Shown here piece after piece: positions 39,408 to 64,000 of a stretch of 64,000 bases of DNA (its first letter is position 1; each line of letters starts with the position of its first letter). The notes beneath the pieces were generated by a model. The model was not told the origin of the DNA and ran no database searches. It saw only the letters and a program-made list of their open reading frames with translations. Origin of the DNA: Flectonema sp. DT1601 (lineage: Eukaryota); NCBI GenBank assembly GCA_964019425.1, contig OZ025792.1, forward strand, positions 1,054,001-1,118,000, written 5' to 3'. Position numbers and translations under genes: made by a program.

Positions 39408-40183
39408 GTCCATTTGATATCAAATTTTGATTGAAGTAAGCAAGCTAGCGAGTCCAACAAGCCACCGTAGGTGGTATTATTTTATTTTATGAGATTTTTC
39501 GCTATTGGCGCCTGATAACGTCATTTTCGTTGTTCACTGGATATGAACTAGGTCCTGTGTTCGGTCCCATTTGCCCCTGTCAGTGAAGGAAAGTCAAGGA
39601 TTTCGTTTCTGATCGAGTTTTTTTTTGGTCGGCACCCTTCGAGAAGGAAGAGCTGGTTGGAGGGAGCACCACAGAATAGTCATTTGATGGCTTTCCGCCA
39701 GTGCTGAATTAGAAGATGATCCGAATGAAATTATTGGACCCCCCCAACAGCGAAAATCTCTTATTTTAATATAGAAAAAAGTCAGATTAGAAAAAAAAAG
39801 ATGAACTCAAAATAAAGAAAAAATATTCATTTCTGCAATTTCCAAACATCTAAGGGCAATAGAATATGTAGTTGCAGGTCTTAATCATATACGTAGTACC
39901 AGTTAGGTAAACGCCAAAGAGAACGAGAGAGGACAATAACCCTGTAATGAAATGATTGTTTTGTTAGTTTCGACACGAAGCATACTAGTGTATCCTCAAT
40001 GCTTCAACTTTAAACGGATCAAAGTAGGATGAAAACAAGAAACTGAAAGGACGATAAGGAATCTTGGGGATGGGATAGATGAGAGTGGGGTTTCTTTTTT
40101 TCTTTAATATTTTTATTTTAACTGCATTGACAGTGGACAGAGGATTTATTTTCAGAGTCCCGTTTTTTTTTTAAAGTGGCTAC
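39408..40183. repeat. ~775-bp segmental duplication, second copy ~49362-50137
   Basis: Near-identical sequence by direct reading; both copies run into the MULE remnant. Confidence 0.85.
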
Positions 40184-49140: not shown

Positions 49141-50142
49141 AATATTTATTTATTTATTCATTTATATAATATTATTAAAATAAAATAAAGGTGTATGAGT
49201 TTATGTTTTGGGAGAGATGAATAACAAAAAATCAAAAAATATTTCCACTCACACTCAACTATCAATATGCAGAAGATGTGAGCCTTTATGGCCACCAGAC
49301 GCTCTTTCTACACCTGACAGTAAGACAAGCCCCACATGGTAGTGACCAGAGTTAGTATTGGTTCCATTTGATATCAAATTCTGATTAAAGTAAGCAAGCT
49401 AGCGAGTCCAACAAGCCACCGTAGGTGGTATTATTTATTTTATGAGATTTTTCGCTATTGGCACCTGATAACGTCATTTTCGTTGTTCACTGGATATGAA
49501 CTAGGTCCTGTGTTCGGTCCCATTTGCCCCTGTCAGTGAAGGAAAGTCAAGGATTTCGTTTCTGATCGAGTTTTTTTTTGGTCGGCACCCTTCGAGAAGG
49601 AAGAGCTGGTTGGAGGGAGCACCACAGAATAGTCATTTGATGGCTTTCCGCCAGTGCTGAATTAGAAGATGATCCGAATGAAATTATTGGACCCCCCCAA
49701 CAGCGAAAATCTCTTATTTTAATATAGAAAAAAGTCAGATTAGAAAAAAAAAGATGAACTCAAAATAAAGAAAAAATATTCATTTCTGCAATTTCCAAAC
49801 ATCTAAGGGCAATAGAATATGTAGTTGCAGGTCTTAATCATATACGTAGTACCAGTTAGGTAAACGCCAAAGAGAACGAGAGAGGACAATAACCCTGTAA
49901 TGAAATGATTGTTTTGTTAGTTTCGACACGAAGCATACTAGTGTATCCTCAATGCTTCAACTTTAAACGGATCAAAGTAGGATGAAAACAAGAAACTGAA
50001 AGGACGATAAGGAATCTTGGGGATGGGATAGATGAGAGTGGGGTTTCTTTTTTTCTTTAATATTTTTATTTTAACTGCATTGACAGTGGACAGAGGATTT
50101 ATTTTCAGAGTCCCGTTTTTTTTTTAAAGTGGCTACAAATGG

Positions 50143-57495: not shown

Positions 57496-59820
57496 ACTGT
57501 GTGGGTGGCTGTGAGTGAAGAACATGTAAAACATAATACTCAAATAACTTCGTCAATCAATTCTACTCTGATGAGGGGCATCTTGTCAATTGAAACTTCT
57601 GCATAATTGTGATAACTGATGCAAAGATGAGAATAAGAGTAAAATAATTTCATTACCTTGTCTTCAACAGAGTTAGAAAGATTGGGTGTAGACTCCCAAT
57701 AACCACTACTGGGAATCAGTTGCGTGGTACAAATGAATAATATTAAGAATGTTCTCTCTGTTGAATGCGAACTTTGCACAATCCAAGCAAAGGTTAGCAG
57801 GACGTACGCTGTTCGTGTGAATGGAAGTGATATCTTTTTGAACAAGAATTCTGCTGATCAGCAGTTTGTTCGTCTCCAGAGTTCGTCACTGCGGCTTTCC
57901 TCGGCCTTCTTTTCCCGTTTCTTCCATTCACGGAATTGTTTATGGAATTAATCCAACGTTGCTGCATATAATGAGTGCAACCCAATCCGTAACCGTTTCC
58001 GAAGACTCAGTATGGATTGTTGAATTAGCTTCAACTGAAGTGATGTAATATAATTTATAGAAAAATAGACAAATTTTAGTTTTAACTATTGAACTCTAAA
58101 ATAAAGAATAAAATAAACGAAAATTGAAAAAATATAAAAATATTAAACTAAAATAAAACAATAGTCAGTAATCATTAGTTATCAGTCAATCAAACAAATT
58201 CGTCGGACAAAAGACAAATAAATGAGTAGAAATTTTGTTTCTTTTATTATTCATCGTAATTAACATAACTCAGCTTAAATGGTAAATAAATAACCATATT
58301 GACGTGGTCTCTTTGCTGAGAAATAGTGAAAACACGAAATAAATTACTCTTCGGTTCCGTATAACGCTGTGGAAAACGAAGTCTCAGGCCATAATCTTAT
58401 ACCACTTGTCCTCAGTAAGTTCTAAGGGACTTAATTCTATATTGAAGTTGCTATCGTTCTAAGACAAAAAAATCATCGGAGTTCTCCAGGATTGGGAGCA
58501 ATGCTTATTTTCTTTTGTTTAATTTAATTCCTTTTATCTTTGACGGTCTGCCCCTTTCCGTATTAAAGTCGAGTTATTAATTGAGTTCTTCATCTATTTT
58601 GCGTTTAATTTTATTCTTAGCATACCATCAATAGTCCTGTATTCACAGGTGTCATTGTAACATCCTTTTCAGAGTGAAATTCTATAGTTCGGTACATCTT
58701 GTCAAAATGATCGAATGGGGGTCTTTGATCTTTTTTGTCTTTAAGAATGTCACGAATGATCATGGATTTAAATGACACTAGTGCAACAATAAAGTGTGCC
58801 ATCCTTGTCTTTTCTTTCTAGGATTCAAATAAGATGCAACCGATACATGAAACGTTTCTCGGGATAATAAAAAGAGTTGTAGAGTTATAAAAAAAAGCGT
58901 GGCCAGAGCCTTTTTTTCCCCTTTCTTTTTTCCCTTCATGCTTGTGAAAAATTAATTAAATGGCAAAATATATGGCTGTGCCAGCCGAGGACAATAAAAC
59001 GCATTTAAAGTAATCATCGCGTTTGCCCTTCTCAGCAAAGGGAAGGGCCGAGTTTATGTTTACGGGATGAAACTTTGACAATGTAAAAACAAATAACAAC
59101 TTTTAGGTATTAATACAAAATTAATATCAAGTGCGACCGAAAGAAATATTTGAAAAAATTAACTAACGAGTGGTGCATGAGTTTATGTTTATGGGAGGGA
59201 TGAATAAAAAATTAAAAAGGTTTCGAATCACACTCAACTATTAATATGCAGAAGGTTTTTGAGCCTTTAAGGCCGCCAGACGCTTCTTTTAACACCTGAC
59301 AGTAGTTGACTAGCGTCTGTGAAGGACTACGAGGCGTTATTCCATCAAAGGAATAACGAAAAGAAAAGAAAAAAGAATTAGAGACCAACATTTGTATCAA
59401 TTTAAATACAACGCGAAATCATTAGTAAATAAGCTAGCGGGTCCAACAAACCACCGAGTACGTTATATCCCCAAAGAGAATCAGGTAGCTCTTCAAGAAT
59501 TCCTAATACTACGGTAGCAGATTGTGAACCTAATCCCAAGAGGATTATATTGTTAGTCTCCACACGAGGCATACTAAATCAAGATATCTGTAACCTCAAT
59601 ACTTCAACGTATCACTAGCAAGAAAGAATATTGAAAAACATGAAATAAATAAATAAATAAATAAGGAAACCTGATGATAGGATAGAGTGGGATTTCTTAT
59701 TTGGGAAAACCTACAGATCCACCCCCAGGTTTGGGGAAACGTACACTACGGTCACGGCCTTGTGTAACTTTTTTGACCCCTGGATATGTGTTTAAATCCG
59801 CAAAATCGAAGACGACCTAC

Positions 59821-59836
59821 TTTCTGTACTTTATTG
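59821..59836 (+). other. Spliced-leader-derived motif TTTCTGTACTTTATTG in the LINE 5' UTR
   Basis: Exact match to the conserved 3' 16 nt of the kinetoplastid/diplonemid SL exon (recalled from memory); sense orientation, 64 nt upstream of the ORF1 ATG. Confidence 0.75.
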
Positions 59837-59900
59837 ATTTCCTACCATTACCTGGTGAGAGTCGATTTTGTGCGGGTTTTCTGACAGACATAAAACTATA

Positions 59901-61325
59901 ATGAGCAGTTGTAAGGAGCTGCTTTTGGATGTGATGCGGTTAGTACAAGAAGTGGAGAAAGGACTAGCAGGAGAAGAAAAGAGAAGGAGGGTTTTGACTC
60001 TCACGATGAGAGTGCTGGAGCAGCTGACGGAGGACTCCGGAGAGAAACAAGGAGAGTCGTCAAAGAGAAAGACGACAGAGCAAGAGAGGAAGGGGAAGGA
60101 GTCCGGGGGACAACGACAGGAAGCGGCGAGCACGGTGAGGGATGGAAATGATGGAGGCCCGACGCCAACTACCAACAACAAGAAACCCACTCTGCCAGAG
60201 TGGTACATTCACGCAGCGTGGGCTAAAGCAACACCTACGCTTAAATTCTCAGAAGCAATCGATGCCTCCAAAAACAACGCGGACGGACTCGTGCTCATCA
60301 GCTCAAAGGCTGATTATGAAGCACTGAAGCAAACACGAACGAAGGGCGACTGGACTGCCATCTCAAAGTCTAAACTGTTTAAAACAACAGTCCCAGTCGC
60401 ACTTCCAGTCGTAAAGAAGTGCGGAACCTGCGTCATTCGTAGGGTATTTGTCACCCCGATTTGTGGCAAAGATTTCACTGCCGCAAGAGAAGACGCCATC
60501 GAGCCACCACAGCCGGACCCAGTTCTATTCGTACAAGACTGGAGTAAATCAGCAGAGAGCACTCTCACCACTAAGGTGAAAGAATTAATTAAAAAGTGGG
60601 AGCTGAAGACATCGCCCTTCGGATTTAAAAAATGCGATATGCACACATCTATGGCGATCCGTGTGCCAAACTTCAGAATTTCTGAAATTCTGGAATACAA
60701 CAACAGCGACACCTCCAGTGAGAAGAGAGATCTATTCATCAGAAACCCATCTTGGTCTAATGGCCAAGACTCTTGGAACACAGTTCAGTTCGTTAAGGAC
60801 TTGGGCTTCAAAGCGGTGCTGGGCAAACTTTCAGTTCTTTCAGCAATCAAAGGTAGCTTCTACATCACGAAGTTCCGAGAGTGCTTTGGGCTGAAAGTTC
60901 AACCCGGGTTTACTCAAAAAGTGAGAGAATCACTCGGGGATTCTCTGAAACCCGCACTGCCGACTGGTCAGCGTTTTATAATTAAATCACTGGCTATTAA
61001 GAAGTTCACGACGCAACAGATCAGCGATCACCTGTTGCACGCATACAAGTGGAGTCACACAATTGTGGCTAGTTTTCATAAGGGAGGCAACAAAACGTTA
61101 ATTGCAATCTCTGAATCGGTTCCATCACCAAGCTTCGTCGACATGGGTAAAGATGCGTACCTTGTAATCAACATGGAAACTAAAAGAGAAAAGCCGGTCA
61201 AATTGGGGCCGACCTTCAACCCGGGCAAGGGTCCAGTTATATCTGGTGATCTGAAGCGACACTGTGCTGAAGAACCAACCGATACTACTGAAACGACTGA
61301 TGTGGAAATGGATAATTCAAACTGA
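59901..61325 (+). CDS. LINE ORF1 protein (474 aa from ATG 59901)
   Basis: Long basic ORF directly upstream of and in frame with the APE-RT ORF; charged helical N-terminus and acidic C-terminal tail. Confidence 0.8.
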   Translation: MSSCKELLLDVMRLVQEVEKGLAGEEKRRRVLTLTMRVLEQLTEDSGEKQGESSKRKTTEQERKGKESGGQRQEAASTVRDGNDGGPTPTTNNKKPTLPEWYIHAAWAKATPTLKFSEAIDASKNNADGLVLISSKADYEALKQTRTKGDWTAISKSKLFKTTVPVALPVVKKCGTCVIRRVFVTPICGKDFTAAREDAIEPPQPDPVLFVQDWSKSAESTLTTKVKELIKKWELKTSPFGFKKCDMHTSMAIRVPNFRISEILEYNNSDTSSEKRDLFIRNPSWSNGQDSWNTVQFVKDLGFKAVLGKLSVLSAIKGSFYITKFRECFGLKVQPGFTQKVRESLGDSLKPALPTGQRFIIKSLAIKKFTTQQISDHLLHAYKWSHTIVASFHKGGNKTLIAISESVPSPSFVDMGKDAYLVINMETKREKPVKLGPTFNPGKGPVISGDLKRHCAEEPTDTTETTDVEMDNSN

Positions 61326-64000
61326 CTTGACAAACGAACACCGTCAACTTCAAATTCTAAAAATGACTCACATCATAGTAAAGTTCTGGTGAAGCCGACT
61401 ACTGTAACAGCACCGACTATCTCTCAAACTGAAAAAGAACTGACCCGAAGTTTATTACTGCTGGCAGGCGACGTTGAACGCAACCCTGGACCTGAAAATT
61501 CGTTACTCTCAGTGTTGAGCTGGAACTGTAGATCGATAAGTCAGAAGGGGTCTTATATTCAAAGACTCCTTTCTCACTACTCGCCGGATGTACTGTGCTT
61601 ACAGGAAACCTGGTCGAAGGAACACATTTCGCACCCTGGCTATTATACATATAGGAAGGACAGAAATACAAAAGGTGGTGGCATTATAATAATGGCAAAG
61701 AGATGCTTCTCACAAGGAATCAGTGATGAAGAATTGTTTTCGAGAACAAGCGGTATCGAAGCTATGATGCTGAATGTTGGTGGTGTCAATGTTATTAACG
61801 TTTACGCTCCCCCTGGGTGTATCATTAGAGAAGATGATCTTCCGATCACAACGAAGTCTATTATTGCGGGCGACTTCAACGCACACAACCTCGTCTGGTC
61901 TACCAGGACAACCAAATCTGGTAAAGAATTATTTAATTGGGCGGATCGCAATGACGTTCTCGTAGCAAACAGACCTGGTCAAATAACTCGGCCCAAACAC
62001 GACATTCCTGGCGGTGGTACCTCACCTGACGTTATATTCTTTAAAGGATCAATTGTATTAGAAGAATTTTCAATCATAAATGAAGACAGTAAACATAACT
62101 CGGATCATCGACCTCTACTCGCTATCTTCGACACAATGGCTCACCTCTCTCAAGCAACAGTTGGAGCAAGGAAACGAACTGTCTGGGATTTCAAATCTAC
62201 AAACTGGAGTGCTTTCAGACAGCAACTTGATAGAAGAATTGATAGGGCTAAGTTCTCGGATGATGCCACTGGTAATGTTGGATTATTAAATAACATAATA
62301 CATGAAGTAGCTGCGAGGAACGTGCGGAGGAGAATCTTATTTAAGGGCAAGCGCCGACGTAAGTGGAAGACCTCTTCACCTGAATCTATAAAATCAAAAG
62401 GTAGTCACCTGAAAGACCAACTGAGGAAGGGGAACAACTTTAACTTCGCCTTCAAGAAGATTAAAGAACTCCAACAGGACGCTGGTAAGGACATCAGCGT
62501 ATCAAATATATCTGAGAACGATTTACCTGCAGCATTTCTGGACCTCTTTGTGGCCGATGGGGATGCTGCTAAACTCGAAGCCCCTTCATTGAAGAAAGAA
62601 GACTTGGAATTGGACATCTGTTGTGACTTCACAGATACCGAGATATCAGCAGCAATTAAAAACCTGAAGCCTCGCAAAGCAGCAGGCCCTGACGGTATTC
62701 ACAACGAAATGCTTAAGAACTTATCTCAGAAGGCAGTTGACTGTTTATTAAAGGTGATCAATTCTTCGTGGAGATCCTCCAATGTTCCATATCTTTGGAA
62801 ACAGGGGTTAATCAAACCGATGTTCAAGTCGGGCAAACCGCGGAACGATATTAAAAGCTACAGACCAATCACACTCACTTCGGTTGTTGGCAAACTGGCT
62901 GAGAGGTTGGTGTACGACAGGCTCATGCATTGGCTTACCGAAAACTCAGCACTCAGTCCGATTCAAGCTGGCTTCAGACGGGGCAGAAATACCTGCGAAC
63001 AAATCACAATTCTGGTGGACGCCATGGTAAACAACCACACGAAGGGGAGGAGGTCAGTCTTCTTGTCATTCGATTTCACAGCAGCCTTCGATAGGATTAA
63101 CCATCGAATTTTACTTTCAAAACTACAAAGAATGGGCATCCCAACCTTCATCGTTCGATGGATAACGGACTTTCTAACCAATAGGAAGGTCAGAGTTGAT
63201 GCAAATGGACATTTCAGTAAGTTTCGTACGCTGTCAAAAGGAGTGCCTCAAGGATCAATCTTAGGCCCACTACTCTATTTAATATATGTTGACGATCTGT
63301 GTAAGATTCTCTCACAAGAGAAGGAAACGACTTTGACCGCACTGTATGCAGACGACACCGCTTGTGCAGTATTTGGCTCGACCATGGACGAAGCAATCTC
63401 AAACGCTCAACGAATACTTGACATCGTTGACAAGTGGTGCCGTGATAATGACATGGCACTTTCAGTCTCCAAGACTTGCGCTCTGAAAATGGATATTCAA
63501 TCGAAAGAAGTAACCCTGACTGATACTAGCGACCGCGAACTCTTATTCTCAAAATCACTGGAAGTACGTTCGTTAGATATTGACTATTTTGATCTAGACA
63601 GCGTGATCAACACGACGACGACAAGGCCCACTTTACTGAGTGGTGAAACGATCCTCGAAGTAGAGGGGAAACCCATCAGGACTCAACAAGAATTAGAAGA
63701 TTTACTGATGTTGAACATCCACGACGAGATGAATGTCAAAGCGAAAATTAAAATTGCCTTCCTACTGCCGATCACGGACTCAGTGAAATATCTGGGTGTT
63801 TACATTGATAACAGGCTCAGGTTTGATAAACAGTTAGAGAAAATACACGACGAACTGAAGAAAGGGATCTCCCTTCTGCAGTGCCTCCAGCCATATGAAT
63901 TGGACTACAAGACCCTAAAGATGGTTAAAAACTTGTACGTGACAGCGAGGATTTCCTATGCACTGGACAGCTTTGGTTGGTTGCTCAACCAGCATAAAAC
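61326..64000 (+). CDS. LINE ORF2: linker + 2A peptide + AP-endonuclease + reverse transcriptase (partial; no stop in the window)
   Basis: Manually translated and open throughout. APE motifs: SWNCRS, LCLQETW, NVYAPP, AGDFNAH, TSPDV, SDHRP. RT motifs: KAAGPDGI, YRPITLTS, QAGFR, DFTAAFD, GVPQGSILGP, YADD (63345-63356), KYLGV (63786). Confidence 0.95.
61434..61493 (+). other. 2A-like StopGo (ribosome skipping) peptide KELTRSLLLLAGDVERNPG/P
   Basis: Exact D(V/I)ExNPG-P consensus with an upstream Leu-rich segment, in frame, a few residues before APE motif I. Confidence 0.9.

Follow-up and report, generated by a model that had tools for sequence, protein, structure and literature searches.

The DNA analysed here, a 64,000-nt stretch of Flectonema sp. 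DT1601 (contig OZ025792.1 of assembly GCA_964019425.1, positions 1,054,001 to 1,118,000 of the forward strand, hereafter the window), ends in a young retrotransposon of the long interspersed nuclear element (LINE) type, likely of a diplonemid. Its two open reading frames (ORFs) lie in the same frame and are split by one stop codon, and downstream of this stop there is no AUG able to yield the whole endonuclease. Among the routes to ORF2 that we compared, readthrough of the ORF1 stop followed by ribosome skipping at a 2A-like peptide is the most likely, a preference that we hold tentatively. A minority of ribosomes would pass the shared Asn-UGA-C stop of ORF1, translate a 32-codon linker and skip at the 2A, which would free an endonuclease-reverse transcriptase (RT) protein starting at Pro. 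The Asn codon and the C at +4 may weaken termination at the ORF1 stop, and readthrough would set a high ratio of ORF1 protein (ORF1p) to ORF2 protein (ORF2p).

The translation of 59901-63998 is broken once, by the TGA at 61323-61325 in the context AAC TGA CTT. Past this codon, ORF2 continues in the frame of ORF1 and stays open for 891 codons, to the window end. Counted from the stop, the G of DVERNPG is codon 55; it ends at 61490, and the P starts at 61491. The original prediction, made from the letters of the window, had described this arrangement, and every coordinate in it was reproduced. It had also placed the first in-frame ATG inside the endonuclease, which agrees with the domain boundaries: the ATG at 61692 (codon 123) lies within the PF03372 match (residues 64-246), beyond the WN and QETW motifs. 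The out-of-frame ATG at 61363, which opens a nine-codon ORF within the linker, had been omitted. The DVERNPG/P peptide combines the GDxExNPGP core with an upstream hydrophobic helix, as expected of a 2A. A stop-free run of 32 codons before the 2A helix was found in 15% of dinucleotide shuffles, so that a layout both in frame and open would arise by chance in about 5% of cases, which is modest alone. It rises above chance through three further findings: the sharing of the stop among copies, the coding-like codons behind it, and the recurrence of the terminal Asn across families.

Family counts rest on protein records and on the DNA of one copy, that of the window. All 15 listed ORF1 records (of 18 members) share the same end, 12 with MDNSN and 3 with MDSN, and no listed copy reads as a single ORF. 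The stop is therefore not private to the window, as the original prediction required, and a private nonsense mutation or a sequencing error was rejected. Within the family, a conserved single in-frame stop is thus followed by an open, coding-like frame. Two further candidates were also discarded. A reassigned UGA code gained no support as the default reading, because the ORF1 and ORF2 frames have no other TGA and the seven host genes of the window end in TAG. A hairpin or pseudoknot acting as a 3' stimulator was rejected, since by single-sequence folding the junction is no more stable than shuffled sequences.

The first 19 linker codons encode a polar, disorder-type peptide and hold one hydrophobic or stop residue. 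The same was seen in 85 of 39,952 host intergenic windows (0.2%) and in 1 of 20,000 base shuffles, a statistic that was chosen post hoc. By a codon-position chi-square, these 19 codons did not deviate significantly (P 0.19), and all 32 did so at P 0.02. As the linker has no near-cognate start before CTG 61386, coding selection in this part could act only through ribosomes arriving from upstream.

Asn is the last residue of ORF1 in five of the six families compared (P0001, P0002, P0003, P0083, and P0086), and the most distant one, P0085, ends in Gln. The end-anchored tails of the six share 0-5 of 25 residues and are not alignable. With the query left out, the enrichment of terminal Asn had P 3e-5 at the observed Asn content of 5%, and P 2e-3 at 15%. 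From ten matches, this count drops the N-terminal fragments P0084, P0087, and P0089 and the probably spurious repeat protein P0088; P0090 was treated apart, and P0002 was added from the ORF1 search. Thirteen of the 15 listed members of the sister ORF1 family (20 in all) end in DFDLN, and two are truncated. The acidic tails of the five families ending in Asn each have a Met within the last 15 residues, and P0085 has neither this Met nor the final Asn.

In yeast lacking New1, P-site Asn codons accompany weak stalling at stops, and UGA-C is termed a weak extended stop, according to the consulted sections of PMC11160720. Slow termination at the ORF1 stop is thus plausible, which does not choose between readthrough and reinitiation. 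All seven host genes in the window, members of one gene family, end in TAG-T, and this was counted for readthrough. No fused ORF1-ORF2 protein was found among 6,580 candidates of 831-2370 amino acids, which is weak evidence. The programmed event at the stop that had been predicted agrees with the terminal Asn and with the coding-like codons that directly follow the TGA; it is the passage by readthrough itself that we infer.

Several points weigh against readthrough. By single-sequence folding, 61323-61500 is less stable than shuffles (z +1.14), and no 80-nt window starting at 61260-61470 has a negative z; a 3' stimulatory structure is missing at many readthrough sites. The stop context is UGA-CUU, which differs from the readthrough motif UGA-CUA. 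The terminal Asn may act as a signal at the protein level, and two of the six ORF1 ends compared (P0083 and P0086) each come from one fragmentary record. Human L1, whose ORF2 is made without its own AUG, may by analogy point to another entry. The Asn effect in yeast is itself described as weak (PMC11160720, sections consulted), and the gag-UGA-pol junction of Tca2 gave no readthrough in a yeast reporter (PMC2194720, sections consulted).

The sister families add to this side. In the diplonemid Flectonema neradi, P0036, P0066, and P0067 carry a Met upstream of the 2A, and P0035 carries one at the start of the endonuclease. For family B, three of the 15 listed records (of 101) start just before the 2A, six inside the endonuclease, and six are fragments. 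The F. neradi records P0036/P0066 and P0067 are transcript isoforms that differ at the N-terminus and merge exactly where the 2A helix begins. Family C has eight starts inside the endonuclease (15 listed of 42). As for the family of the window itself, five of the 15 listed ORF2 records (of 37) are called from GTG 61389, P0050 is called one codon later, and nine have internal starts or are fragments; either a codon lost in frame or a newly arisen ATG would account for the P0050 start. The gene caller writes GTG as M, so an M in ORF2 records is no proof of an ATG.

The last point on this side comes from P0090, a decayed element copy from one more family. Its ORF1 end continues into the 2A and APE without a stop. 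At 17 of the 20 positions of residues 39-58, Gln or Pro would be allowed one base earlier, a level reached by none of 8,139 control windows, and directly after this segment the one-base-earlier frame can hold Asn and TGA. This suggests, from one protein record and unless a second indel is hidden, that ORF2 is +1 to ORF1 in the P0090 family. A second copy of the 9-mer at the ORF1 end stands at 61424 of the window, in the same +1 relation and at the position homologous to the P0090 candidate stop. P0090 was rejected as a true single-ORF relative: its linker looks like an off-frame tail, its 2A core reads NSGP, and its endonuclease similarity ends near residue 267.

As an outgroup control, JGI metagenomes were scanned for a 2A followed by the start of an APE. 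In each of the 12 loci obtained, which represent five unrelated families, a Met precedes the 2A in frame; ORF1 is visible in one family only, where it is out of frame. The layout of the window is therefore not the default for LINEs with a 2A in this small sample. These unrelated elements (L031-L042) have long hydrophobic leaders of 27-145 codons before the 2A; a Met-Pro-Val-Glu start is common to two families, and the leader of L041 is similar.

The strongest alternative, which we regard as nearly as likely as readthrough, is that ribosomes terminate at the ORF1 stop and reinitiate without an AUG in the linker, at the CUG or GUG of 61386-91, with the 2A trimming the leader; the restart possibly comes after the short +1 ORF, which ends in a stop that overlaps the GUG. 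It has a precedent in human L1, where ORF2p is independent of its own AUG and needs the upstream ORF to be completed (PMC4091050 and PMC5972666, sections consulted). The unstructured linker, the G at −3 and +4 of the CTG and the overlap of the GTG with a TGA are all suited to it, and so is the variable entry among the sister families (a Met before the 2A, a likely +1 relation in P0090), as expected of a frame-independent mechanism. A slow stop after Asn would presumably also help to retain the ribosome on the RNA. However, reinitiation offers no reason for the linker to be open in frame 0 or for the codons at 61326-61382 to be coding-like, and the AUG at 61363 would send scanning subunits into the wrong frame.

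Trans-splicing offers another entry. Sixteen nucleotides at 59821-59836 are identical to the 3' end of seven of the 14 euglenozoan spliced-leader consensus rows shown in PMC3795323, as far as this source was consulted. With two bases skipped, the preceding 4 nt agree with one published leader row as well. The relic lies 64 nt before the ORF1 ATG, so that the RNA of this copy or of an ancestor was likely leader-capped when it was reverse-transcribed; judged from this sequence match, that RNA was likely trans-spliced. The relic may have arisen at a single 5' junction, or it may belong permanently to the element.

An ORF2-only mRNA could accordingly be proposed, made by spliced-leader trans-splicing at AG 61377-78 or 61382-83, which would remove the out-of-frame AUG and leave CUG 61386 as the start; we consider this unlikely. 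The relic marks the RNA of the element as a trans-splicing substrate, and a 104-nt AG-free zone, the longest in the element (P 0.002 in local shuffles of a G-poor region), ends at an AG 8 nt before the CTG. The ORF1 stop lies within CTGAC, which we take to resemble the branch-point consensus. But the stretch has no pyrimidine tract (41% A, 24% T) of the kind that clearly precedes the AG of one host gene in the window, and the AG gap coincides with a general scarcity of G, with GC and GG gaps at the same place. The coding-like codons upstream of the AG would be unexplained, and ORF2p would presumably be parted from its full-length RNA template.

Least probable, and in our view improbable, are a cis-intron whose excision takes out the stop and joins ORF1 to the 2A, for which the abundance of GT-AG introns in diplonemids speaks but no spliced copy is found among the listed records, and a recent accident that put an ancestral Asn-UGA +1 junction into frame 0 with mixed low-level bypass, which would suit the +1 recurrence of the ORF1-end 9-mer at 61424, homologous to the P0090 candidate stop, but not the closing of the +1 frame past the real stop at 61390 nor the lack of significance of a wider duplication against codon shuffles (P 0.14), on which ground a whole duplication of the ORF1 end was rejected.

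Readthrough followed by skipping thus remains our preferred route. Whatever the entry to the linker, the 2A would give ORF2p an identical N-terminus, and this we infer with more assurance than the route of entry. It suggests a role for the 2A of LINEs, namely to make the N-terminus of the enzyme independent of how translation arrives. The original prediction had also assigned to the 2A the replacement of a protease; LINEs, however, are not known to use a protease, which leaves none for the 2A to replace. A broader scheme for the diplonemid LINE clade, which we regard as doubtful, would make the weak Asn-UGA stop a throttle, passed by frame-0 readthrough here and by a +1 shift in a sister family, with the 2A erasing the leader so that the entry is free to change. 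If it were true, the LINE would be driven by two serial recoding events on a spliced-leader-capped RNA. The conserved Asn before the stop would, if confirmed, be a new termination signal. With no usable ORF2 AUG and a 2A 55 codons past one shared stop, the junction offers 170 nt in which reporter results should differ between readthrough, reinitiation, and trans-splicing.

Table 1. Features of the LINE and its ORF1-ORF2 junction (window positions)
Feature	Position	Strand	Remark
Relic of the 3' 16 nt of a euglenozoan spliced leader	59821..59836	+	Unique in the window at up to 3 mismatches on either strand
5' leader from the relic to the ORF1 ATG (64 nt)	59837..59900	+	Host-repeat matches end at 59656
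ORF1, 474 amino acids, acidic tail ending in Asn	59901..61325	+	
Asn codon, TGA and CTT, the family-wide ORF1 stop	61320..61328	+	15/15 listed copies end here; Asn last in 5/6 families
Linker, 32 codons, ATG-free and open in frame 0, A/C-rich, unstructured	61326..61421	+	
Out-of-frame (+1) ORF, 9 codons	61363..61392	+	ATG 61363; TGA 61390-61392 overlaps the in-frame GTG
First AG after a 104-nt AG-free stretch spanning the stop	61377..61378	+	Possible trans-splice acceptor without pyrimidine tract
Near-cognate codons CTG GTG, in frame	61386..61391	+	CTG has G at −3 and +4
2A-like peptide: helix, LLLLAG, DVERNPG/P	61422..61493	+	Fits the GDxExNPGP core; also in sister families; skipping predicted
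Repeat of the 9-mer ending ORF1, in the frame to which ORF2 stands at +1	61424..61432	+	Only 2 sites in the window; P 0.0014 (shuffles)
ORF2 beyond the skip site	61491..64000	+	APE endonuclease ~61515-62063, RT ~62844-63515; exceeds the window end

The hexamer formed by the Asn codon and TGA occurs at 61320, 61427, and 61438 (+), once in each frame within 125 nt, and at five sites in the whole element.

ORF2 has PF03372, PF14529, and PF00078 above the cut-off, and its best sequence matches in the PDB are L1 ORF2p. An APE endonuclease is followed by a non-long terminal repeat (non-LTR) RT in one ORF, the arrangement of an APE-type LINE. The full-length ORF2 record P0032 has 1305 amino acids, and intact ORF2 records of 1304-1305 amino acids exist. 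Pfam RNase_H was above the cut-off in the sister-family records P0035 and P0036, below it in P0037, and without a match in P0032 and P0034; the ESM Atlas neighbours are clusters with RT, APE, and RNase H. ORF1 had no match in Pfam or in the ESM Atlas. Its predicted model shows an N-terminal helical pair and RNA recognition motif (RRM)-like domains (~residues 200-288 and 354-429) at low confidence, with a mean predicted local distance difference test (pLDDT) of 49. Against RRM domains, the model gave Z 6.4-7.9, a range of common folds that is suggestive only, and Foldseek returned nothing at E<=0.001.

Dispersed copies were found on many contigs as cluster members of ORF1 (18) and ORF2 (37), and the full-length ORF1 members are 99-100% identical. 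The ORF1 search (6,809 candidates) gave three clusters: the 18-member family of the window, a sister family of 20 members with 44% identity, and one F. neradi protein. The ORF2 search at E<=1e-30 gave six, four from ENA and two from F. neradi, and five of their representatives are 42-67% mutually identical. F. neradi is thus the source of the closest named relatives of the element. JGI metagenomes and IMG/VR yielded no relatives of ORF1. Scanning GTDB genomes for an RT motif returned 0 matches, and an IMG/VR scan for a 2A plus WN gave 30 loci, none of which is similar to ORF1 or ORF2 by tblastn. The genome paper of Diplonema papillatum, in the sections consulted, lists LINE-type ORFs and defers their rigorous identification; in its supplement, as consulted, one row is a 76-copy 'Tbingi protein' orthogroup.

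Elsewhere in the window, 1445-57552 (−) holds a tandem array of seven paralogous ORFs of 898-1106 codons, all ending in TAG-T. Hydrophobic stretches lie at both the N- and the C-terminus, and the PT-repeat stalk (PF04886) varies in length. The ORFs are likely surface membrane proteins. Two short remnants at 39575-39718 and 49528-49671 (−) are 57-58% identical to the Cys/His region at the ORF2 C-terminus. By this similarity, we identify them as putative 3' fragments of a related LINE that were duplicated along with the array.

Known systems were compared through the sections consulted of the papers cited, which also took in PMC10161547 and bioRxiv 2026.09.24.754024. Ingi and L1Tc likewise have a euglenozoan host, a 2A directly before the APE and the order APE-RT-RNase H, seen here in the sister families that have an RNase_H match (PMC5814959, PMC12278014, PMC3708506). 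In these sources, however, they have a single ORF without ORF1, a 77-nt promoter-ribozyme and unspliced RNA, whereas the element described here has a 474-amino-acid ORF1 and a spliced-leader relic. As the single-ORF feature of the Ingi clade is absent, we did not file the element as an Ingi member. The window gave no Rfam match at the gathering score, only two sub-threshold chance matches near the 5' end, and no search was aimed at the 5' Pr77 promoter/HDV-like ribozyme itself.

The combination of a shared in-frame stop, an AUG-less linker, and a 2A, of which the original prediction knew no description for a LINE, was not found in the literature searched, which included few subscription papers and did not include Repbase. 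Neither of two 2A screens from 2026 contains the string DVERNPGP in its main text, as far as consulted. The claim of novelty does not extend to LINEs with ORF1 and a 2A-led ORF2 or to AUG-independent ORF2 translation in human L1, both of which are already described. CR1-26_BF, CR1-53_BF, and CR1-1_LG also have two ORFs and a 2A at the start of ORF2, but the sections consulted describe no in-frame shared stop or AUG-less entry (PMC3708506, PMC3894237). In Cordylochernes scorpioides, a 2A likewise stands between the ORF1p and ORF2p domains, yet within one continuous protein, with no intervening stop mentioned in the sections consulted (PMC13405545). Human LINE-1 shares the bicistronic RNA, the short spacer, and the possibility of ORF2p without an AUG, but an ORF2 AUG is normally present, reinitiation is proposed, and a 2A is not mentioned in the sections consulted (PMC4091050, PMC5972666). 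Tca2 of Candida albicans also has a single UGA between structural and enzyme ORFs that must be bypassed, but it is an LTR element, and the sections consulted mention no 2A (PMC2194720). How ORF2 is translated from a bicistronic LINE RNA is still called an open question (PMC3894237, PMC3708506, sections consulted). The 2A of LINEs is itself unexplained, and a published idea links it to the loss of ORF1, yet this intact multi-copy family keeps its ORF1.

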